In this document: piece after piece, positions 2,921 to 31,862 of the stretch
How positions within the stretch are numbered: position 1 is the first letter of the stretch
Layout of the letters: each line of letters begins with the position of its first letter
Source of the DNA: a virus
Lineage: Duplodnaviria; Caudoviricetes
Direction: 5' to 3' (one strand)
IMG/VR virus record: IMGVR_UViG_3300024433_001307
Coordinates: 1,029 to 65,028 of that record
DNA length: 64,000 nucleotides
Translations under genes and position numbers: made by a program
Notes under the pieces: model-generated
Database searches by the model: none
The model's input: the letters and a program-made list of their open reading frames with translations, nothing else
What the model was told of the DNA's origin: nothing

Positions 2921-3841
2921 TTAAGTTTCTTCAATAATCTTGTAACAAGTAGCAACAAACCCAGCATATTTAGAATCAAAGAAATTATCTTCAAATGCTT
3001 GAACTATATCAAATGCTCGGCCACTTAATTTTTTTCCTCCTAATAAAACCTTCTTACAATAGGTTAAAATCATCCATCTTAATTGTTCCGGTTCATCCAT
3101 TTCCGTTTCTGTTAGTATTTTAGCCATTTCGGGCCATTTGGTTTTTGGATTCAATAAAGCTCTTACTATTTGAATTGCTTGTATTTCCATTGTCGTTTCT
3201 TCTATGGTATTGAGCATATCCTCTTCACCTTCTAAATCTATGATTTGATTTAGAAAGACAAGAATTTTACGAGCAGAACCATAACTATTTTCTACCATCT
3301 TATCAATAACATCTTTTGATATTTTTCTATGTTCTTTTTTGGCTGTATCAATAATCAATTTGATTAACAATTTTTTGGAAAGACTTTTGACGGTAATTTC
3401 AGTACATCTTGTTCTTATTGTTTTCAATAATTTTTGAGGTTCGGTGGTAGCCAACATGAAATAAACATGCTTCGGTGTATCCTCCAGCATTTTGAGAAAA
3501 GCATTTTGAGCATCGTTTGTTAATTTATGAGCTTCATCTATCAACCATATTCTGCATTTGCCACTTATAGGAACTTGTTGTATTCGTTGTCTTATCTTTC
3601 TTACCTCTTCTATACCTCGGACATCAGCACAATTCAATTCATTAAAATCATGTCTGCCACATCCTAATTCTCTTCTAAGTATTCTCGCCAAAGTGGTCTT
3701 ACCACAACCACTTGGTCCAGCAAATAATAACGCATGTGGTATCTTTTCTTTTTTTATCATAATCCTTAACGATTTGATGATATGGTCTTGACCTAATACT
3801 TCATCCAAAGTCTTTGGTCTATATTTTCTGTACAATTCCAT
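2921..3841 (-). CDS. dnaX: DNA polymerase III gamma/tau-like clamp loader ATPase
   Basis: LYRKYRPKTLDEVLGQ, GPSGCGKTT, IDEAHKL, QNAFLKMLED, TIRTRC. Confidence 0.93.
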   Translation of the reverse strand: MELYRKYRPKTLDEVLGQDHIIKSLRIMIKKEKIPHALLFAGPSGCGKTTLARILRRELGCGRHDFNELNCADVRGIEEVRKIRQRIQQVPISGKCRIWLIDEAHKLTNDAQNAFLKMLEDTPKHVYFMLATTEPQKLLKTIRTRCTEITVKSLSKKLLIKLIIDTAKKEHRKISKDVIDKMVENSYGSARKILVFLNQIIDLEGEEDMLNTIEETTMEIQAIQIVRALLNPKTKWPEMAKILTETEMDEPEQLRWMILTYCKKVLLGGKKLSGRAFDIVQAFEDNFFDSKYAGFVATCYKIIEET

Positions 3842-3851
3842 TATCTTTCTT

Positions 3852-4508
3852 TTATATAAGAGGTTTTGGTTTTCTTCTTTCTATTTCTATTCTCTTTCTT
3901 GTTATCTTACAATATTCTTCATTGATTTCTATTCCAATCCATTTTCTACCTTCTCGCTCTGCTGCTATAAGGGTTGAACCTGAACCACAAAATGGGTCAA
4001 GTATGGTATCACCAGGTTTTGAGAAATCTCTGATAATGGCGGCCATAAGTTTAATTGGTTTTTGTGTAGGATGATATCTCCTAAATTTTCCTGGATTACG
4101 ATAATCAGTATCTGCATTGACATATCCACCGTGCATAATTCTATATATTTTATAATAGCCTGATTTTTTACTTATCCAAGCAAGTTCAAAAGCAGAACCA
4201 ATCGCAGCATCTGCAATTGGTCTGACTCTTTTATCCCAACATAACCATCTTCCGCGAGTAGGTATTTGCAACCAAAAATTTTGGGCTCCAAATATAATCT
4301 TCAATTCTGGTCTATTAAAAAGAAAAGTGAAATCCATTATTTTCTTGTCGCCCTTCATTTCTCTTCTTTTTTTCTCTTTCTGTCTCGTGCCTTGAGTTTT
4401 TGTATAATCTATTCCGTAAGGAGGGTCTGTTAAAATTAAGGCAACAGGAGATATCTTTTTTAATATTCTTCTACAATCACCATGAATTATCTGATTGGAT
4501 AATTCCAT
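3852..4508 (-). CDS. DNA amino-methyltransferase (N6-A/N4-C, beta class)
   Basis: TDPPY precedes HPTQKP and LDPFCGSGST. Confidence 0.92.
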   Translation of the reverse strand: MELSNQIIHGDCRRILKKISPVALILTDPPYGIDYTKTQGTRQKEKKRREMKGDKKIMDFTFLFNRPELKIIFGAQNFWLQIPTRGRWLCWDKRVRPIADAAIGSAFELAWISKKSGYYKIYRIMHGGYVNADTDYRNPGKFRRYHPTQKPIKLMAAIIRDFSKPGDTILDPFCGSGSTLIAAEREGRKWIGIEINEEYCKITRKRIEIERRKPKPLI

Positions 4509-23511: not shown

Positions 23512-24246
23512 TTATCCTTTCAATCTTTCAGCAACGGCACGTGGATTGCTGCCTATTATTTCTATAAATTTTTTGATTTCTTTCAATGTATAATATCCGC
23601 TGAGGTGTTCAATCATATAGAATTGTTCCTTTTTTGGTCTTTTCATGAATTCGTCTACATCATTCTCACAGCAAAAACTAAGATTGAAGCTTCTCTTGTT
23701 GCCATATTTTAATACATTCGAGTTTGGAGTATGAGCTAATTCTACATCCATATTTCCGGTCACCATTTCTATATATTTTTGATGTGCTATTTCTTGTTGG
23801 TTTTTTCTTTCGAATATAGGTTTTGCGACTTCAAAAAACATTTTGATTCTTGAGATAGTTGTTTTTATTTTTTTGGAATAGAATATCTTATTGGAATAGA
23901 ATATCTTAGTTGTAGTTGAAAATCTATTTATTCTAAGTTGGGTTATTCTAAATTGGGAAACATGCGGATGTCTTAATTCTATTGCAAACCTACCATCATG
24001 TCCATCAGGATTAGGTTCAGGTTCCCAGGATATTCTAATGCGTATTTCATTATTTAGATAAGGTATTTTTATATCAAGTTGGGAGGGTGGTCCGCATTCT
24101 TTTTTATCAAAACTCTTTTTATTTTTTATTGAACAGAAATCGGCTTTTCCTTCAAACCATTTTTCTTTAAGGAGAGCTTCCCTAAGCATGACATGAGGGA
24201 TTTTATCCCACTCTCTTATTCTATCAATATCATAATTGAAAGCCAT
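23512..24246 (-). CDS. Hypothetical protein
   Basis: 244-aa ORF preceded by the repeated GAAAGGACAATAAAATG leader. Confidence 0.7.
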   Translation of the reverse strand: MAFNYDIDRIREWDKIPHVMLREALLKEKWFEGKADFCSIKNKKSFDKKECGPPSQLDIKIPYLNNEIRIRISWEPEPNPDGHDGRFAIELRHPHVSQFRITQLRINRFSTTTKIFYSNKIFYSKKIKTTISRIKMFFEVAKPIFERKNQQEIAHQKYIEMVTGNMDVELAHTPNSNVLKYGNKRSFNLSFCCENDVDEFMKRPKKEQFYMIEHLSGYYTLKEIKKFIEIIGSNPRAVAERLKG

Positions 24247-24259
24247 TTTATTGTCCTTT

Positions 24260-25465
24260 CTAATTGAAATTTACGGTTATTCCGAATGGAGCCCTTTCAT
24301 CATCTTTATTTGTAGTTATCCACATGGTTGGATATTCCGGTTGTGTTTTGGGAAAGTGTCCATATAGGTCAGTGAAATATATCAAGCAAGATGGGGTATA
24401 TCCTTTCTTATTGATATGTTGAAATACTGGACGGAAATCTGTTCCACCTCCACCTACTGGTTTAAGTTCCAGTGGTAAATCATTCCTATTGATTTCTACT
24501 TCCTTTTTTACTTGTGAATCGCAATAGAATATCCGTATCCTTGTTTCATATACTGCCAGGATATTTGATATTTCGTGAGCAAAACGACTCAATTGTTCTT
24601 TGGAGATACTTCCTGATGTGTCTATTGCTATTGCGACCTCAGGCAATTCTTCGCTTATTAGACTTGGAAGTATAATCCCTGTGGAGAAATATCTTCGTGA
24701 AGGTACCATCCAATTATAATCGTTTCGGGCAGACCTCTCTACAAAATCTCTTAGAAGGATATACCAAGGCAAAGGCGGGTCTAAAATAACTTGAAGCTGT
24801 CTATATAGGTCTCCTGATAATTCACCTCTTGTAATTTGGATGGCTTGACTAACCGCAGCCTTCCATTCCATTTGAGTTTGATTCATTTCATTTTTGTCTT
24901 TAGGAGGTGTTACTCCTCCACATCGTCCGGGGTCAGGATTTGGTTGTTCCTTATCTTTGCTTTCGTCTTTTTTCTGTTGTTGCTGTTTCTTATTTTTACC
25001 ACTTCCACCACTTTTCTTTTGTTGCTGTTTATTTTGTTTGTCCTTTTTCTGTTCATCCTTCGATAGTAAAGCATAGATTTCTTCCGCCGAAAGATTATCA
25101 TATTGACTGTCTCTCAAATATCCTTTTGGTAAGGTGAATCCTGTTTCAAGTAGATTCTCATTAACGGTATAGTCTACTGCCATATTCCATCTTCTGCTTT
25201 CCCTATCGCCTTGTCGCCATGTATGCCCTAAGGCACAATGCATCACCTCATGGGCTAATAAACCTTTGGTTTGCATGATGGGCAGAGAATCTATATAATC
25301 AGGATTGTAATAGAGGCTCGTTCCATCGGTGGTGGCACTTTTGGTTGTTTCGGGTTCCTCTATCAATTGAAGTTTCAACGCCAAACATCCAAAGAAGGGA
25401 TGGTCGAGTATTAGCATAGACCTTGCCTTCAATAGTTTGGTTAATGGTTTATCTTTGATTTTCAT
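24260..25465 (-). CDS. DUF2201-type metallopeptidase-VWA protein
   Basis: HPFFG, ATTDG, HEVMH (HExxH), N.A.D..VN, IDTSGS MIDAS, GGGGTDF, YFTDLYG. Confidence 0.88.
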   Translation of the reverse strand: MKIKDKPLTKLLKARSMLILDHPFFGCLALKLQLIEEPETTKSATTDGTSLYYNPDYIDSLPIMQTKGLLAHEVMHCALGHTWRQGDRESRRWNMAVDYTVNENLLETGFTLPKGYLRDSQYDNLSAEEIYALLSKDEQKKDKQNKQQQKKSGGSGKNKKQQQQKKDESKDKEQPNPDPGRCGGVTPPKDKNEMNQTQMEWKAAVSQAIQITRGELSGDLYRQLQVILDPPLPWYILLRDFVERSARNDYNWMVPSRRYFSTGIILPSLISEELPEVAIAIDTSGSISKEQLSRFAHEISNILAVYETRIRIFYCDSQVKKEVEINRNDLPLELKPVGGGGTDFRPVFQHINKKGYTPSCLIYFTDLYGHFPKTQPEYPTMWITTNKDDERAPFGITVNFN

Positions 25466-25477
25466 TTTCTTTCTCCT

Positions 25478-26464
25478 TTATAGAAGGATATCCTTATGTA
25501 TGGCAACCCAGTTGATAAACATCTTGGTATTTTGGATTGATGGTTGTTTGCGAATGGCATCTCTCACTAAGAGCACGGAAAAATCTGCGGGTAATCGATA
25601 GCCATATCGGAGAATGTTTCTATAGGTCTCCTTGGATATCTTTTCAACCAGAGCGGCTACTACGGCATACAATGCAGCGGGTTCATTTGGGACGGTTGCT
25701 TTGTCTGGTTTGGTTAGAATAGTTTTGATATTTGGAAGGCTTTTGTAGACCTTCATAAATCCTACTAATTCTGCCGCACAACCTTCTCCTACTGCACCGG
25801 CCAATACTTCTAAATCATCGAGTCCAGCATTGATTAGTTTACCACAAAAGGCTATGGTGCGTGGACAAGGATGATTTATGATTTCCGAAGTGGCTTCCAT
25901 AGTGCATAATAGGTTTGGTCGAAAATGTATGAAGCCTATAATCTCTGGAGGCATATCGTTCTTGAAGGCCCATTCAGTCCAATCATCTGCTGAAGGTATC
26001 AATTCGATGATTGTAGCGAATCTCGATTTTACTGGTTCGAGAATACCAGTAACACCTGCTCTGTCTTCGCGTCTATTTGTTGCTGCTATGAATACAACCT
26101 TATCTGATATTTTGTATTCATTTACTCGTCTCGCCAATATCAATTGCATGGCTGCTGCTTGAACTGCTGCTGGAGCTTGTCCCAAATCATCGAGAAAGGC
26201 TATGGTTGGTTTCTTTGCATTGATGAGTTTTCTCAAGTCGCCGAATGGTAAAAATTCTGCTTCACCATCTACTATACCTGGCAGACCTTTGAAATCGGTT
26301 GGGTCAGATACGACCGGGTGACTGATTACTAAATTCATTTTCAATTTCTTGGCGACTTGTGCCACAATGTCGCTCTTACCTACCCCTGGAGAACCTTTTA
26401 TTAACACAGGTAATCCAGCTTTGATTGATTCAATCAAAGTCTTTTTAAGTTTTTTCGGTTCCAT
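25478..26464 (-). CDS. MoxR/dynein-related AAA+ ATPase
   Basis: GSPGVGKS, DFKGLP, FLDDL, AATNR, SRF, PCPRT. Confidence 0.88.
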   Translation of the reverse strand: MEPKKLKKTLIESIKAGLPVLIKGSPGVGKSDIVAQVAKKLKMNLVISHPVVSDPTDFKGLPGIVDGEAEFLPFGDLRKLINAKKPTIAFLDDLGQAPAAVQAAAMQLILARRVNEYKISDKVVFIAATNRREDRAGVTGILEPVKSRFATIIELIPSADDWTEWAFKNDMPPEIIGFIHFRPNLLCTMEATSEIINHPCPRTIAFCGKLINAGLDDLEVLAGAVGEGCAAELVGFMKVYKSLPNIKTILTKPDKATVPNEPAALYAVVAALVEKISKETYRNILRYGYRLPADFSVLLVRDAIRKQPSIQNTKMFINWVAIHKDILL

Positions 26465-26534
26465 TTCATTGTCCTTTCATTAAGGTTAATAAAGTTTGAG
26501 TCCGGTCAGCTTTCAACCTGACCGGTGTCGAACC

Positions 26535-26648
26535 TTATAATTGTATTAGCTGTAGGTTGTCTATTACTTCTGAAAGATATTGAAGTGCGAATCGTACCGC
26601 ATATGACCCAACAGCAATGACAACCAAGCCTAACAATATCAGTTCCAT
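26535..26648 (-). CDS. Small membrane peptide (37 aa)
   Basis: Hand translation MELILLGLVVIAVGSYAVRFALQYLSEVIDNLQLIQL. Confidence 0.4.
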   Translation of the reverse strand: MELILLGLVVIAVGSYAVRFALQYLSEVIDNLQLIQL

Positions 26649-26668
26649 TGTTTTTGCACATATCTTAA

Positions 26669-27541
26669 TCATGATTTTTTTCCTTTCATAAAGGTATTCA
26701 TTTTTTCTAATACTTCTTTGGCTGCCTTGTGAGCATCTTTCCTCTCTCTCTTATTGGACCTTAGATTATCCGGACTGAGGTTTGTCAGTCTTTTGATGGT
26801 TAGTTTCCGAATTGATTCCAAATTGTTGTCATCTATTAGATTGAGTTTTGGAATCAATTCACAAAAATCCTTCAGATTGTTGATTAGCGAATCCTTAAAT
26901 TTCTTATCGGATTGCTTGAGTGTCTTCCTAACCTTTTCAATTAGAGTAGCCAATTGCTCCCATACTTCTGTCATTGCTTTTTGTGTCATGGTTTCAATAG
27001 AGTTTGAAATTTGCTTTCGAATATCCTCAACTTCATCCTTATTTAGATTGACTCGAAAATCATTTGCTGAAGGTATTGGTAATACGTCGGTTTGAATTGC
27101 AAATCTATATCGTATCTCCTCAGTTGATGGAAGCTTCTTACCTTCGATTAACTTTCCCAATCTCTTTTTGGATTCGGCTATGATGGTAGGATATTCCTCT
27201 AAGAAATCATTCACTGCTTCTTCATATTCTGCAATGACTTTTCTCATCACTTGAGAATACTTTATGAACATTGAAGATGGAAGTATTCTCAATCCTCCGT
27301 CCATCCAGGGCAAAGTTAGACGTCCATGTTGGAATCGACATCTATCGCTGGCATAATTGATGGTCTTAAGTGATTTCTTAGGTATCAAATAAGTCCACCA
27401 AGCTCCGCTATCCCTATCGGAATTCTTTGCCATAATAACTTCATCAGTTACTTTGGCATCCTTAGTTCTCCCTGTCCATTTTGATATTTGCAAATGGACC
27501 AACATTGCCTTCTCAGCTAAATCACCTTTTCTTGTTTTCAT
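26669..27541 (-). CDS. DUF3150-like protein
   Basis: AMLVHLQISKWTG, TLPWMDGGLRILP, F...YP; this family is typically paired with AAA and DUF2201 genes. Confidence 0.65.
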   Translation of the reverse strand: MKTRKGDLAEKAMLVHLQISKWTGRTKDAKVTDEVIMAKNSDRDSGAWWTYLIPKKSLKTINYASDRCRFQHGRLTLPWMDGGLRILPSSMFIKYSQVMRKVIAEYEEAVNDFLEEYPTIIAESKKRLGKLIEGKKLPSTEEIRYRFAIQTDVLPIPSANDFRVNLNKDEVEDIRKQISNSIETMTQKAMTEVWEQLATLIEKVRKTLKQSDKKFKDSLINNLKDFCELIPKLNLIDDNNLESIRKLTIKRLTNLSPDNLRSNKRERKDAHKAAKEVLEKMNTFMKGKKS

Positions 27542-27553
27542 TTTATTCTCCCA

Positions 27554-27727
27554 TCACAAATAAATTGCTAAAATCTCAATAAACTCTTTTGGAATGCCAT
27601 CTCTTATTAACATCTCCTCAGCCTGCTTTTGTGCATCCAAACCATTCTCGGCGATAAAACTTTTTCTAATGGTGAATATTTCACCAGTATCTAAGTTTCG
27701 CCATTTTACTTGATGTCTTGTTTTCAT
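27554..27727 (-). CDS. Small early protein (57 aa)
   Basis: Hand translation MKTRHQVKWRNLDTGEIF...; preceded by the repeated leader/RBS. Confidence 0.7.
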   Translation of the reverse strand: MKTRHQVKWRNLDTGEIFTIRKSFIAENGLDAQKQAEEMLIRDGIPKEFIEILAIYL

Positions 27728-27810
27728 TTTATTGTCCTTTCTGTTTTTATTTATAAGTGGTCGGGGCAGAATGTTACCATCCCACCCCGACCGGAGAGGA
27801 GTGAACTTAT

Positions 27811-28068
27811 TTAGATATCCCTTTCAGCATTGACTAAATTCTTGTTCCAAAGTGCCGAGGATAAGGAGGTAAAGATATTTGCAAGACCGTTCAGCAAATG
27901 TTGAATATCAGCACAATCCAATTTATTCACATCAAGTTTAATCTCGTTGCCTTCCATATCCCTTATGAAGTGCTCGCCGCAGGTGGTTTGTGTAAAACTT
28001 ATTATCGGAATAACATTCATTCTTTCCGATAATTTTAGATTTTGATTTTGTTCCATCTTATTCTCCAT
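27811..28068 (-). CDS. Small early protein
   Basis: 85 aa; starts exactly at the ATG of the repeated leader. Confidence 0.7.
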   Translation of the reverse strand: MENKMEQNQNLKLSERMNVIPIISFTQTTCGEHFIRDMEGNEIKLDVNKLDCADIQHLLNGLANIFTSLSSALWNKNLVNAERDI

Positions 28069-28101
28069 TTTATTGTCCTTTCTGTAATTTATGGTTTGTT
28101 T

Positions 28102-28144
28102 AGTAAACCGCTGGTCAGGAATCGAACCTTATTTTCACCACCAG
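28102..28144 (-). ncRNA. tRNA-like T-arm element, short copy
   Basis: AGGTTCGATTCCTGACCAGCGGTTTACT, identical over 28 bp to 29116-29143. Confidence 0.5.
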
Positions 28145-28431
28145 TATATACCATCAATGTCAATGATATTATTTGTTCCTTTTTCGTAAGGTTTCAAAAC
28201 AACGACAACTTTGGGTCTTTTTGAAATAACCCAATTATAAAGTTCAGTCTCATTTTGGAATTGCCCAAACTTTTTTGTAAGGTTCCTCCTTGCCGTGTTC
28301 CACGCTGTCTTCCCTCTTGCAAAGACTAACCATGTTTGGCCTCTTTCGGTAAATAACCGTCCTGAACCAATTGCTTTTTTAATAATTCTAATTATTTGTT
28401 GCCTGCTTTTTTTGGTTTTTTCTACTTTCAT
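28135..28431 (-). CDS. Small basic early protein
   Basis: 98 aa; starts at the ATG of the repeated leader. Confidence 0.7.
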   Translation of the reverse strand: MKVEKTKKSRQQIIRIIKKAIGSGRLFTERGQTWLVFARGKTAWNTARRNLTKKFGQFQNETELYNWVISKRPKVVVVLKPYEKGTNNIIDIDGIYWW

Positions 28432-28477
28432 TTTATTGTCCTTTCTGTTTTATTTTTTCAAATATGGTTTATTATTG

Positions 28478-28511
28478 CCAGGCAGTTTAATTCACGTCAT
28501 GCCCAGGACGT
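28478..28511 (-). ncRNA. H-type pseudoknot leader element, copy 1
   Basis: ACGTC-CTGGGCAT-GACGT-GAATTAAAC-TGCCTGG. Confidence 0.6.
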
Positions 28512-28633
28512 CGGAGTGATGAAAGCTTCAGTTTCTTATGCTAAGGCAATCCAAATTCCAATTGCTATCCAATAGATGATGCTGAATTTTGGTGGTTGGT
28601 ATGTTAAATAAATCATCTTATTTCCTCCTTCCT

Positions 28634-28867
28634 CTAAACTTTTACTACACTAAGTGAACCAACAATAGCAGGAGGTCGAACCAACAACCACTCATTAGCT
28701 GAAGCTGACTTGGAATCGGATTGCTTAATGTTATAGTTACTGTTTGGTATACACTTGTCACATATTTCTGATGCCAGTGTTAAGGCTTCTTCAAGTGTGT
28801 CAACTGGGATGAACCTTTCCTTTGTTATTCTATCTGGTCCAACGTCTTTTAATGTTATTTTGTACAT
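28634..28867 (-). CDS. Small early protein
   Basis: 77 aa; starts at the ATG of the repeated leader. Confidence 0.7.
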   Translation of the reverse strand: MYKITLKDVGPDRITKERFIPVDTLEEALTLASEICDKCIPNSNYNIKQSDSKSASANEWLLVRPPAIVGSLSVVKV

Positions 28868-28909
28868 TATTGTCCTTTCTGTAAAAGTTTCAAATATGGT
28901 TTATTATTG

Positions 28910-28943
28910 CTGGGCAGTTTAATGCACGTCATGCCCAGGACGT
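28910..28943 (-). ncRNA. H-type pseudoknot leader element, copy 2
   Basis: ACGTC-CTGGGCAT-GACGT-GCATTAAAC-TGCCCAG. Confidence 0.6.
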
Positions 28944-28971
28944 ATTACGGAGGAGAAGTGTTATGTGTTAT

Positions 28972-29073
28972 TTAGGTTTTCTTTTTATTGATATATTCAG
29001 CCAGCAGCAAGAAAAACATTGGAATTGAACCAACACAACAAGCATCAACAAGATTTGTCATTATGGTTTCCAT
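28972..29073 (-). CDS. Early hydrophobic microprotein (33 aa)
   Basis: METIMTNLVDACCVGSIPMFFLLLAEYINKRKT following a leader copy. Confidence 0.5.
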   Translation of the reverse strand: METIMTNLVDACCVGSIPMFFLLLAEYINKKKT

Positions 29074-29115
29074 TTTATTGTCTGTCCTTTCTGTAATTTT
29101 CAAATATGGTTTGTG

Positions 29116-29174
29116 AGTAAACCGCTGGTCAGGAATCGAACCTAACTACCTAAACAACAGGTAACCATCAGCGG
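29116..29174 (-). ncRNA. tRNA-like element, long copy (closing stem, hairpin, T-arm)
   Basis: CCGCTG/CAGCGG closing stem, TACCT/AGGTA hairpin and TTAGG-TTCGATT-CCTGA T-arm. Confidence 0.55.
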
Positions 29175-29457
29175 GAAGGAATTTTCTATAAAACCAGTGT
29201 ATTGTAAAAGTCCATCTTACCTATGACCAGTGTAAGGAGTTAATCCGCTCCGCAGAGCACACCCCAATCAGTAAGACCCAATCACTTTACCTCAGTTTTT
29301 ATTATGCTTTCACTACCGTCGCTACTCGCTTCGCCGCCACCCTTTGCAATTTTACAGCATACATGGTAAATTCACTCAGGAATTCTCCGGCATTTTTAGG
29401 ACCTTTCTAAAGCCCTACATATTATTAACTTTTCAAGTCTAACTTTATACTACTAAA

Positions 29458-29485
29458 ATTATAACAACAGTTTCCTAATAGTCAA
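29458..29485 (-). promoter_or_regulatory. Leftward early sigma70 promoter
   Basis: Minus strand TTGACT-N16-TATAAT with an extended -10 TG, at the divergence point of the two arms. Confidence 0.7.
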
Positions 29486-29685
29486 AAGGAAAAATTGGGG
29501 ATTTTTGTGAAATTTTTGATTTTTTTAATATCCCTGTTTCTTAACCCATAAATGGGCATTTTACCTGAAAATAACCCAAAAAAATATGTGCATCTTACGT
29601 ATAAATTGCCTTATATCTGTTTTCCGTAATTGCTTTCCAAGAATTGCCGTTACAATGTATATAAGAAAGCAAAAGGATTTGTGCT

Positions 29686-30408
29686 ATGAGCAAACGGACT
29701 ATTTGGAATGATAGTTTCATTATTCGAGCTTACGAGCTAATCAAATCGGGGCTGACAGAAGCACAAGCGGCAAGAGCACTTGGAATAAGCAAACCAACCT
29801 TTCTTGATTGGGAACGAAAAAAGAAATCATTTAGGTCTGCCGTTCAATTAGGCAGGAATGCTTATAGAAATGGTAACGGTCAAGTCTTAAGTTTCCGAGA
29901 TTATGTCTTCCAAAGATTGTCAGCAAACCTCAAAGAATTATGGAACAAGATAAACAAATTAGACGAAGCAGATTCCGGAGTAGAAAAGATAGAAGCAATT
30001 CTCAGTGGGCAAGGAAAAGAAGTAAGACAGCATCTATTCATATATTCGTGGACAGCCAGTAATTTCTCAATCAGCCAAGCCTTGAGGAAAGTCAATATAA
30101 GCAGGTCTACGTTTGATTTGTGGAAGAATAAAGACCCGGATTTTGCTGCATTAGTAGATGAGATAGATTGGCATAAAAAAAACTTCTTTGAGGACCATCT
30201 GTGCACATTGGTTGCAGGAGGAGATACCACAGCAACAGTTTTTGCAAATAGAACATATAATAGACAGAGAGGATATAACGAGAAATTCGATGTGGAGGTT
30301 TCAGGAGGATTACAAAATACCGTAGTCAATGTAGAAGAAATGAATCTGCCAATCGATGTGAGAAAGGAGATATTAAAATCCTTACGACTACAGCAGAAGA
30401 CAGATTGA
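29686..30408 (+). CDS. Terminase small subunit (two HTH motifs)
   Basis: HTH motifs, DPDFAA, GDTTATVF...RGY; directly upstream of TerL. Confidence 0.8.
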   Translation: MSKRTIWNDSFIIRAYELIKSGLTEAQAARALGISKPTFLDWERKKKSFRSAVQLGRNAYRNGNGQVLSFRDYVFQRLSANLKELWNKINKLDEADSGVEKIEAILSGQGKEVRQHLFIYSWTASNFSISQALRKVNISRSTFDLWKNKDPDFAALVDEIDWHKKNFFEDHLCTLVAGGDTTATVFANRTYNRQRGYNEKFDVEVSGGLQNTVVNVEEMNLPIDVRKEILKSLRLQQKTD

Positions 30409-31862
30409 ACGAAATATACTTTGATGAATACAATTTAGTGAAAAGTATCACTAAAGAGAGTTTCAGTGAATTCGTCAAAGAATTTTGGAGTACGATTATT
30501 ACAGATACACTAATATGGAACTGGCATATGGGGTATATATGCAATGAACTCCAAAAGATAGCGGAAAGAGTGTTTAGAAGCGAACCAAAAGAATATGATT
30601 TGGTTATCAATATCAGTCCGGGCACGACGAAATCTACAATATGTTCCATTATGTTTCCTGCCTGGATATGGGTCAATATGCCAAGTGCAGAAGTTATAGG
30701 TGCATCCTACGCTCATCAAATTGCTATGGACCTAAGCAGGAAGAATAGAGACGTAGTGAGAAGCGATAAATATCAACACTGTTTTGGTCGGGTTTGGAAT
30801 GAAAAGAAAGAGGAGTTTAGACCATATATAAAGATGAGGGATGACCAAGCTGCCAAAACATATTTTATGAATACCAAAGGAGGTTCGAGATTTAGTGCTG
30901 GAGTGGGTGGAGCAATAACAGGTATGCACGGCCATTTCCTTATTGTAGATGACCCACTGAATCCTAACGAAGCGGTCTCAGAGGCAGAGCTTGCAAATGC
31001 CAATAGGTGGATGTCTGAGACTCTGCCAACAAGGAAGATATCGCATTTAGTAACGCCAACAATACTTATTATGCAGAGATTGCACCAAGACGACCCTACT
31101 GCTAATATGCTCGCAAAGTCTAAGAGAATTAAGCATATCTGCTTACCCGCTGAGAGTACTGCGAATATTAAGCCCAAGAAACTTACGAGGTTCTATAAAG
31201 ACGACTTGATGGACCCTAAGAGATTTCCACGTAAGGTTTTGGATGATAACAGAGTTCTTTTAGGTGAATATGGATATGCTGGTCAATTCCTACAACGTCC
31301 AGTACCATTAGGTGGAGGTATGTTCAAGACAGATAGAATCATAATTGATGAACCTCCCAAGAAATGGAAGATGAGGATTAGATTTTGGGATAAGGCAGGA
31401 ACAAAAGGAGGAGGTGCTTATTCTGTTGGTACATTAATGGGAAGGGACAGAGAGGATAGGTATTGGATATTGGATGTGGAAAGAGGCCAGTGGGATTCGT
31501 CGAGACGAGAAACAATTATTAAGAGCAATGCCATAATGGATGGTAAAGATATCATAATAGGATTAGAGCAGGAACCCGGTAGTGCAGGAAAAGAATCAGC
31601 AGAAAACACCGTCAAGAATTTAGCTGGATGGATAGTTAGGGTAGACAGGCCCACGGGAGATAAAGCTACTCGTGCTGACCCATTTAGTGTTCAGGTCAAT
31701 AATGGAAATGTTTATATGGTAAAGGCTGATTGGAATCGGGACTATATAAATGAATTAAAATTCTTTCCGCTTTCCAAATATAAAGACCAAACAGATGCTT
31801 CAAGTGGAGCATTCAATATATTAGCTAAAGGAAAAAGGAAGGTTGGGTGTATAGAACTTTGA
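30405..31862 (+). CDS. Terminase large subunit
   Basis: WNWH, NISPGTTKS, LIVDDP, IMQRLHQDD, FWDKA, EQEPG, DQTDA. Confidence 0.93.
   Translation: MNEIYFDEYNLVKSITKESFSEFVKEFWSTIITDTLIWNWHMGYICNELQKIAERVFRSEPKEYDLVINISPGTTKSTICSIMFPAWIWVNMPSAEVIGASYAHQIAMDLSRKNRDVVRSDKYQHCFGRVWNEKKEEFRPYIKMRDDQAAKTYFMNTKGGSRFSAGVGGAITGMHGHFLIVDDPLNPNEAVSEAELANANRWMSETLPTRKISHLVTPTILIMQRLHQDDPTANMLAKSKRIKHICLPAESTANIKPKKLTRFYKDDLMDPKRFPRKVLDDNRVLLGEYGYAGQFLQRPVPLGGGMFKTDRIIIDEPPKKWKMRIRFWDKAGTKGGGAYSVGTLMGRDREDRYWILDVERGQWDSSRRETIIKSNAIMDGKDIIIGLEQEPGSAGKESAENTVKNLAGWIVRVDRPTGDKATRADPFSVQVNNGNVYMVKADWNRDYINELKFFPLSKYKDQTDASSGAFNILAKGKRKVGCIEL

Follow-up and report, generated by a model that had tools for sequence, protein, structure and literature searches.

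A variable cassette array at the head of a phage operon carries copies of a widespread RNA pseudoknot found at gene ends and 5′ of RNase P substrates

The early operon of phage T7 is cut into single mRNAs by host RNase III, an enzyme that needs long irregular double-stranded hairpins. In tRNA punctuation and in the MALAT1-mascRNA transcript, RNase P cleavage takes place at a tRNA-like fold, and a protective structure forms the end of the RNA upstream. Luteovirus frameshift signals, the preQ1-I aptamer, and PK1 of transfer-messenger RNA (tmRNA) are compact H-type pseudoknots whose third loop is A-rich. T4-type phages carry promoter-early stem-loop (PeSL) cassettes, reportedly also treated by Comeau et al. 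in 2014. Arbiol et al. 2010 (PMC2839356) describe PeSL cassettes as short repeated regulatory elements that flank nonessential orphan genes in a hyperplastic region, with recombination between cassettes explaining gene gain, loss, and replacement among relatives. [quoted passage not shown] Here we describe an array of five repeated cassettes in 64,000 nucleotides (nt) of Caudoviricetes DNA (IMG/VR record IMGVR_UViG_3300024433_001307, positions 1,029 to 65,028). This stretch, referred to here as the window, covers nearly the whole 65-kb virus record. The array is a variation on the known shuffling, PeSL-like cassettes, and two of its units contain an H-type pseudoknot that is found in phages whose hosts span at least four phyla.

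Gene blocks in the window diverge around 29500-29690, with terminase and structural genes on the plus strand and a ~28-kb block on the minus strand that starts with the cassette array. All five units lie on the minus strand and follow the order structured element, spacer, near-identical translation leader, and unrelated small open reading frame (ORF). Unit 1 comprises a tRNA-like fold (29174-29121), the spacer AAACCATATTTGAA (29099-29112, exact), a leader that carries a 4-nt insertion and ends in ATG (29071-29094), and ORF1 (28972-29073), which encodes a hydrophobic product of 33 amino acids (aa). Unit 2 has a pseudoknot (28947-28905), the same spacer (28889-28902, exact), a variant of the leader ACAGAAAGGACAATAAAATG that is two bases shorter (28863-28882), and the orphan ORF2 (28634-28867, 77 aa); next to it is a hydrophobic 26-aa ORF that has its own strong Shine-Dalgarno sequence and no cassette (28536-28616). 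In unit 3, a second pseudoknot (28515-28473) is followed by the spacer (28457-28470, exact), the exact leader (28429-28448), and ORF3 (28135-28431, 98 aa). Unit 4 starts with a 28-nt piece of the tRNA-like fold (28129-28102), from which a shortened spacer, AAACCATA by sequence reading (28090-28097), and the exact leader (28066-28085) lead to the orphan ORF4 (27811-28068, 85 aa). Unit 5 consists of a 15-bp G+C hairpin (27792-27759), the exact leader (27725-27744), and ORF5 (27554-27727, 57 aa). The gene for a DUF3150 protein (26669-27541, minus strand), the conserved anchor common to relatives, lies directly 3′ of the array.

The cassettes are real repeats. The 20-mer leader ACAGAAAGGACAATAAAATG has eight matches at up to three mismatches versus 0.02 expected, three of them being the exact copies of units 3 to 5, and its 9-nt core CAGAAAGGA occurs six times versus 0.92 expected, with five of the six occurrences inside the array. 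Weaker copies of the leader with two or three mismatches precede three other genes of the operon (at 24244, 26462, and 21247), so part of the leader is the ribosome-binding site preferred by this phage. The 14-nt spacer AAACCATATTTGAA is present in three exact copies, and pseudoknot and spacer together form a 56-nt repeat with two copies of 95% identity. A 22-nt leader repeat (27716-27737 versus 27530-27551, 95% identity) reaches into the first 12 coding bases (four codons) of both ORF5 and the DUF3150 gene, so that ORF5 and this gene begin with the same 12 bases. The original prediction, made from the sequence of this locus, was right about five repeated cassettes downstream of an early promoter, with repeat counts far above expectation, and four of its five structured elements hold up; the remaining one, the fourth, had been called tRNA-like but merely repeats the 28-nt 3′ part of the first. 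Likewise, the spacer assigned to four units is exact in three, with only AAACCATA in unit 4; the fixed leader does recur in five units but is partly just the preferred ribosome-binding site; and the ORFs of 33 to 98 aa are indeed unrelated to each other, although the 26-aa ORF had been missed. The pseudoknots, taken as local elements of the array, are present there but belong to a motif that is widespread beyond the window.

Relatives were sought by protein-anchored searches, which returned three distinct ones, all of which keep the flanking genes. In the first (L001/L132, DUF3150 49% identical), a near-identical promoter and a ~530-nt leader are found without cassettes, and a ACAGAAAGGA-type leader sits directly on the DUF3150 gene. 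The second (L002/L133, DUF3150 45% identical) has a different fixed leader of 27 nt in three copies, each behind a hairpin and each preceding an ORF (52, 193, and 283 aa); hairpins and ORFs differ from those of the window. In the third (L137, terminase 61% identical), cassettes are absent and the small ORFs are different ones. In relatives, the CAGAAAGGA-type leader stands on the DUF3150 gene itself. None of the window's six small ORFs (0/6) has a relative in nine related loci, where DUF3150 matches reach E = 1e−96, which rules out an invariant ORF content. The six ORFs are also mutually unrelated and have no match in Pfam or PHROG. Three of them gave only self matches in a word-index search of 5.8 billion proteins, and ORF3 has one homologue, 58% identical, in a full HMMER scan of 1.8 billion representative proteins.

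The absence of these ORFs from relatives and the extension of the leader repeat into coding starts fit gene insertion by recombination at the leader. Both the 28-nt remnant in unit 4 and the leader repeat entering ORF5 and the DUF3150 gene look like recombination scars at cassettes; the relatives are too distant for single exchange events to be traced. The window cassettes thus resemble PeSL cassettes in that they flank orphan genes in a variable region and appear to act as exchange points. They differ in their parts. PeSL cassettes combine a strong sigma-70 promoter with a working terminator hairpin, neither of which was seen in the window cassettes, where promoter-like matches are weak (9 to 10 of 12) and inconsistently spaced. 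What stays constant here is a translation leader; structure is provided by the pseudoknot, the tRNA-like fold, and the hairpin.

Right behind the array, a conserved module of three genes (24260-27541, minus strand) encodes the DUF3150 protein, then an AAA (MoxR-like) ATPase, and then a DUF2201 metallopeptidase/VWA protein. Very small hydrophobic ORFs stand at the head of early regions in the window (33 aa at 28972-29073 and 26 aa at 28536-28616) and in L002 (29 aa at 245-334); they are mutually dissimilar and could encode single-pass membrane peptides. The early region of L137 contains a 149-aa ORF (~3880-4150, minus strand) that is largely a 21-nt tandem repeat encoding a repeated seven-residue peptide.

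A strong sigma-70-type promoter, TTGACT-16-(TG)TATAAT, lies upstream of the array (29458-29485, minus strand), matches the consensus at 11 of 12 positions, and faces away from the plus-strand terminase genes. It is followed by an untranslated leader of ~280 nt (29175-29457), only the first ~130 nt of which resemble the leader of L001. A structured RNA in this long leader was considered and rejected, as its fold was no more stable than those of shuffled sequences (z = +0.93), and an Rfam scan of window positions 26500-30500 gave no match in it. No minus-strand terminator-like site was scored within the array (27541-29458). Because there is one promoter and no terminator-like site inside the array, the whole array is probably cotranscribed from 29485-29458, in agreement with the single transcript originally proposed. 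Other parts of that proposal fared similarly: shuffling of ORFs between repeats that serve as exchange points agrees with the variable ORF content and with the leader repeat that enters the coding starts of ORF5 and DUF3150, so the interpretation is supported in part. It also postulated cutting into individually stabilised mRNAs for putative anti-host microproteins, and the ORFs gave no Pfam or PHROG match. Like the T7 early operon, the array has several small early genes behind a single early promoter, and every gap between genes holds a structured RNA element. It differs in that neither the pseudoknot nor the tRNA-like fold is a substrate of RNase III, and only the 15-bp hairpin of unit 5, one of five elements, could qualify.

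The two array pseudoknots are copies of a ~35-nt H-type pseudoknot, NNNC-CUGGGCAU-GNNN-NN-AAAC-UGCC(YA). A pattern scan returned at least 120 matches in viral contigs and at least 120 in prokaryote genomes; with duplicates removed, the viral matches listed comprise 116 unique instances, and the viral counts below refer to these listed instances. The same 5-nt gap is found in 103/116, where chance would spread the gaps evenly over 5 to 15 nt. In helix 1, the two inner pairs are formed in 99/99 aligned instances with four to five pair types, and 90.1% of alignment cells pair, compared to 78.9% in shuffles (0/500 reach the observed value) and 29 to 40% in slid-partner controls. G-U pairs arise only when the motif is read on the sense strand (29/99 at one pair). 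Because the scan pattern had fixed the second helix, a covariance model, R1, was built and missed copies were collected. In a hand-picked alignment of 25 sequences (6 canonical and 19 variant copies), 93.3% of helix 2 cells pair versus 23 to 43% in slid controls, both sides change at three of six pairs, and a fourth pair shows G-C to U-G changes. The motif therefore has the two covarying helices of an H-type pseudoknot, with the first loop pairing downstream. R1 scores the window copies at 31.5 bits (28905-28947, E = 7e−8) and 28.2 bits (28473-28515, E = 8e−7), the latter keeping its second helix through G-U pairs. A short ORF from the AUG of the motif was rejected as an explanation, since the second copy allows it 2 codons before a stop, against 21 open codons in copy 1.

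Across phages of Actinobacteria, Firmicutes, and cyanobacteria, as well as crAss-like phages and a microvirus, the bases of loop and linker hardly vary. An exact 18-mer of the pseudoknot also occurs in two unrelated high-G+C phage contigs, in both cases intergenic and on the sense strand. GenBank phages with matches are Moorella phage MTATph1, Lactobacillus phage phiEF-1.1, Corynebacterium phages phi673/phi674, Synechococcus phages S-EIVl and S-CRM01, Nostoc phage NMeng1, Cellulosimicrobium phage DS1, and a microvirus, and these matches fall on unannotated intergenic DNA. The microvirus (Sigmofec virus UA08Rod_4626) is a 6-kb single-stranded DNA phage with few intergenic gaps, one of which, after a peptidase gene, holds its one copy (2996-3034, 36.2 bits). 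With Rfam 15, neither the window nor S-CRM01 had a hit overlapping the pseudoknot at E values up to 10, and nothing reached the gathering score in 15 bacterial pseudoknot loci. Text searches returned no description of the pseudoknot, and its motif string gave primer-type matches only. A published catalogue of 10,006 viral candidate RNAs (PMC10690425) may list the motif, without a function, in its supplements. We therefore treat the pseudoknot as a candidate new RNA class. In geometry it resembles the compact H-type pseudoknots, with a first helix of 4 to 5 bp, a first loop of 1 to 2 nt, a second helix of 5 to 6 bp, and an A-rich loop of 5 to 6 nt. Unlike them, it has no slippery site and no consistent downstream gene class in phages, the window contains no tmRNA, and the Rfam scans gave no sequence or model match to luteovirus signals, preQ1-I, or tmRNA PK1.

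The pseudoknot is always on the sense strand, and all 83 tRNAs within 1.5 kb of it are on the same strand, with 0 on the opposite one. The stop codon of the nearest upstream ORF (at least 50 aa) lies 5 to 6 nt before helix 1 in 44/111 cases (5 nt in 25 and 6 nt in 19), within 10 nt in 63/111, and within 30 nt in 84/111. Just upstream of the motif, stop triplets pile up in several frames, and both flanks are G-poor. The next ORF starts a median of 38 nt downstream, and a tRNA begins 4 to 8 nt past the pseudoknot in 13/116 instances. In S-CRM01, one copy lies 3 nt before tRNA-Asp, and variant copies are found behind tRNA-Tyr and behind a tRNA-like fold that is not annotated. In the crAss-like phages cr7_1 and cr124_1, the pseudoknot belongs to the segment excised from a permuted tmRNA and stands 5 nt ahead of the acceptor 5′ strand; in cr7_1 the tmRNA model places it in an insert that is not aligned. 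Together, these data show that the pseudoknot is a conserved, covarying RNA structure of the sense strand that is associated with the ends of ORFs and with the 5′ side of RNase P substrates. Flanking genes are diverse, the largest upstream family being Hsp20 (18/91), which comes from related contigs. Placement at operon starts, as for an antitermination-type element, was rejected, since strand switches within 1.5 kb upstream (25/89) and downstream (17/91) show no clear bias with crude gene calling.

The permuted two-piece tmRNAs of cr7_1 (L260, 1104-1339) and cr124_1 (L261) match RF04321 at 66.4 bits against a cutoff of 47, and a tRNA-Cys directly follows the tmRNA gene in both. The possibility that the pseudoknot is an ordinary part of two-piece tmRNA was rejected, because in a genuine gene of this kind from a betaproteobacterium (312 bits) that place is taken by a plain hairpin, and R1 gives no match. 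Theta ribozymes offer a likeness in being small structured RNAs directly beside phage tRNA genes, which suggests a role in RNA maturation (PMC10879173); they differ in standing 3′ of tRNAs with the nested double-pseudoknot fold of HDV, while the present motif is mostly 5′ of tRNAs and simpler.

Arrays of three to four pseudoknot copies punctuate small ORFs at spacings of 340 to 2,300 nt in three other contigs (L102, 60-831; L036, 6735-8000; L104, 2869-7036), a design that is the same as that of the window. Two copies in L102 have common flanks of ~60 nt and compensatory differences in the second helix. Contig L082 has copies ~1.07 kb apart (1502-1540 and 2570-2608), each followed by an identical stretch of ~45 nt with the promoter-like sequence TTGACT-17-TAAACT; this pair is a putative PeSL-like cassette built on the pseudoknot.

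In prokaryote genomes, the 5-nt gap is present in 53/120 matches listed, and helix 1 forms in 50/53 of these; with other gap lengths it forms in only 11/67, which is about the chance level. In about 25 bacterial loci (among them L142, L150, L155-L157, L176, L180, L182, L206, L207, L220, L250, and L254), a tiny ORF of 22 to 25 aa ends in a stop codon that the pseudoknot overlaps. The bacteria are diverse and include Omnitrophota, Deltaproteobacteria, Planctomycetes, Anaerolineae, and others. The tiny ORF has a Shine-Dalgarno sequence ahead of it and encodes the conserved peptide ...(ML)RPVAHC(K/S)EGC....SWA-stop; an exact look-up of five such peptides in the protein collection found none. Many of its neighbors are Rrf2 regulators (8/42) or metal or Fe-S genes (ArsP, YHS, NifU, cysteine desulfurase, and ferritin), and some loci have a second pseudoknot in tandem with compensatory changes. 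This combination looks like an undescribed leader-peptide and RNA device.

The element of unit 1 (29121-29174, minus strand) has a stable tRNA-shaped fold (−21.4 kcal/mol, z = −3.88, 83% of the ensemble), with an acceptor stem of 6 to 7 bp, one hairpin of 5 to 6 bp, and a canonical T-arm (GGTTCGATTCC). The D-arm of a tRNA is absent, and no tRNA finder or model called the element: ARAGORN reported 0 tRNA genes there in bacterial, mitochondrial, and relaxed modes, and the Rfam tRNA model did not match 29121-29174 at E values up to 10. Covariance models for tmRNA, which do find the tmRNA of crAss-like phages, matched neither window positions 26500-30500 nor the whole record. No match in GenBank phages was returned by blastn with the whole region or the tRNA-like element, and an exact 21-mer of its T-arm and acceptor strand occurs in 0 viral contigs. 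The remnant in unit 4 (28102-28129, minus strand) contains the T-arm and acceptor 3′ strand, is 100% identical to 29116-29143, begins 5 nt past the ORF3 stop codon, and folds no better than shuffles (z = −0.54). The G+C-rich hairpin of unit 5 (27759-27792, minus strand; −28.9 kcal/mol, z = −6.09) has no U-tract behind it and was not scored as a terminator. As in MALAT1-mascRNA, the window has a tRNA-like fold within what is probably a longer transcript, and in other genomes the pseudoknot, a compact fold containing an A-rich strand, precedes RNase P substrates by a few nt (tRNAs in 13/116 instances and the permuted tmRNA). MALAT1-mascRNA differs in being eukaryotic and in having a protective triple helix rather than this pseudoknot, and the window's pseudoknots and tRNA-like element are in separate cassettes, not adjacent. 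An unannotated tRNA-like fold in S-CRM01 (L128, ~948-1010), not called by ARAGORN, has a 7-bp acceptor stem, a T-arm, and a shortened middle; its T-loop is the same as that of the window element, and a variant pseudoknot lies 2 nt downstream.

We propose that a long leftward phage operon has the array as its hypervariable head. Recombination at the shared leader, with its CAGAAAGGA core, would have added small orphan genes successively upstream of the DUF3150 gene, and each inserted unit would bring an RNA structural module ahead of the leader: the two widespread H-type pseudoknots, the D-armless tRNA-like fold together with its recombination remnant, and the G+C hairpin. These modules may serve as cistron boundaries, at which the RNA is cut or at which decay and ribosome traffic are halted. 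The tRNA-like fold would be cut by tRNA-processing enzymes, and the pseudoknots and hairpin could be either cut sites or blocks to exonucleases and ribosome traffic. The outcome would be that every small gene is expressed independently. On balance we lean toward this overall picture. Its firm part is the architecture and the origin by recombination; its soft part is the boundary function of the RNA modules, which is predicted from sequence. That the pseudoknot further represents an undescribed functional RNA class of phages, bacteria, and possibly archaeal viruses is a tentative proposal to which we give a little less than an even chance. Such a class would mark cistron ends and the 5′ side of RNase P substrates, would act through a universally conserved machine (the ribosome, RNase P, or an exonuclease) or through its own catalysis, and would be spread in plug-in cassettes.

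Several observations weigh against this proposal for the array. Near-invariant bases in loop and linker would be unnecessary for a plain roadblock, and the pseudoknot is not a general gene separator, since each of five complete phage genomes holds only one to two copies. The two copies in the window are 24 to 28 nt past the upstream stop codons, not the typical 5 to 6 nt. In some contigs an intrinsic terminator follows the pseudoknot, making a role as a block to 3′ exonucleases redundant there. Part of the fixed leader is merely the ribosome-binding site preferred in the operon, and only three distinct relatives were found, all of them distant (45 to 61% protein identity).

The tight link to upstream stop codons raises the alternative that the pseudoknot acts on the ribosome terminating on the upstream ORF, where it would be placed at the mRNA entry channel and would tune termination, prevent or permit re-initiation, or shield the next ribosome-binding site from translation upstream. 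The sharp peak at 5 to 6 nt (44/111) is the spacing of frameshift and readthrough pseudoknots, and both the ~25 bacterial loci with the stop codon of a tiny conserved ORF inside the motif and the downstream start codon at a median of 38 nt would suit such an action. We nevertheless consider it unlikely. The 13 copies that precede tRNAs do not precede ORFs, copies also directly follow tRNAs, and the window's two copies are 24 to 28 nt from stops. Furthermore, the distance from stop codon to helix is 5 nt in 25 cases and 6 nt in 19, and the motif therefore keeps no single reading phase relative to the upstream ORF.

The elements could instead be terminators, with promoters hidden in spacer and leader, so that the cassettes are PeSL-like units of the T4 type giving one transcript per small gene. 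Promoter-like matches do occur in the cassettes (ATGACG-18-AATAAT in both pseudoknots, 9/12, and TTGAAA-16-AATAAT, 10/12), and in other phages such sequences follow the pseudoknot twice in L082, where the flanks are identical, while extended −10 boxes stand directly before the ATG downstream of the pseudoknot in L043, L066, and L076-L078. The number of promoter-like sites in the region, though, equals that expected from shuffles (16 versus 15.8), the distance from TTGAAA to the −10 box is 16, 20, and 20 nt in three units, the start site would lie inside the ORF, and the −35-like part of the pseudoknot is a freely covarying helix. In addition, no U-tract follows any structured element of the array, and none was scored as a terminator. 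This makes separate transcripts quite improbable compared to boundaries within a single RNA.

The almost invariant loop and linker bases, the presence of one to two copies per genome, and the position next to arrays of tRNAs, from which RNase P and 3′ processing would release the motif, are what would be expected if the pseudoknot, perhaps with the tRNA-like element, were a free trans-acting small RNA, either a decoy or sponge for a conserved host factor or defense nuclease or a small-molecule aptamer. Such a role leaves the tight upstream stop codon link unexplained, no partner or ligand-related gene context was seen in phages, and the neighboring genes are diverse, so we regard it as a doubtful one. 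Finally, a very small ribozyme that cleaves itself and so divides the polycistronic RNA at the borders of genes and tRNAs would match the sporadic, low-copy, tRNA-adjacent distribution in phages and bacteria with invariant unpaired bases and would have a precedent in theta ribozymes, but it is very improbable given a size of ~35 nt with two short helices, to our knowledge smaller than any known natural self-cleaving class, the lack of a match to any Rfam ribozyme family, the failure to map onto an HDV-like fold (no conserved partner strand upstream for a nested double pseudoknot, and G-poor flanks), and the variable distance of 4 to 8 nt to tRNA 5′ ends, which means that the pseudoknot does not make the mature end.

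If cistron boundaries carried by recombining cassettes are the right explanation for this array, the phage needs no new promoter to gain and express further small genes: a gene is pasted behind a standard leader, and a self-folding RNA module separates it from its neighbors. Because the pseudoknot keeps a fixed position with respect to stop codons and tRNA 5′ ends, its function is directly testable, and it could serve as a compact insulator part in synthetic operons.

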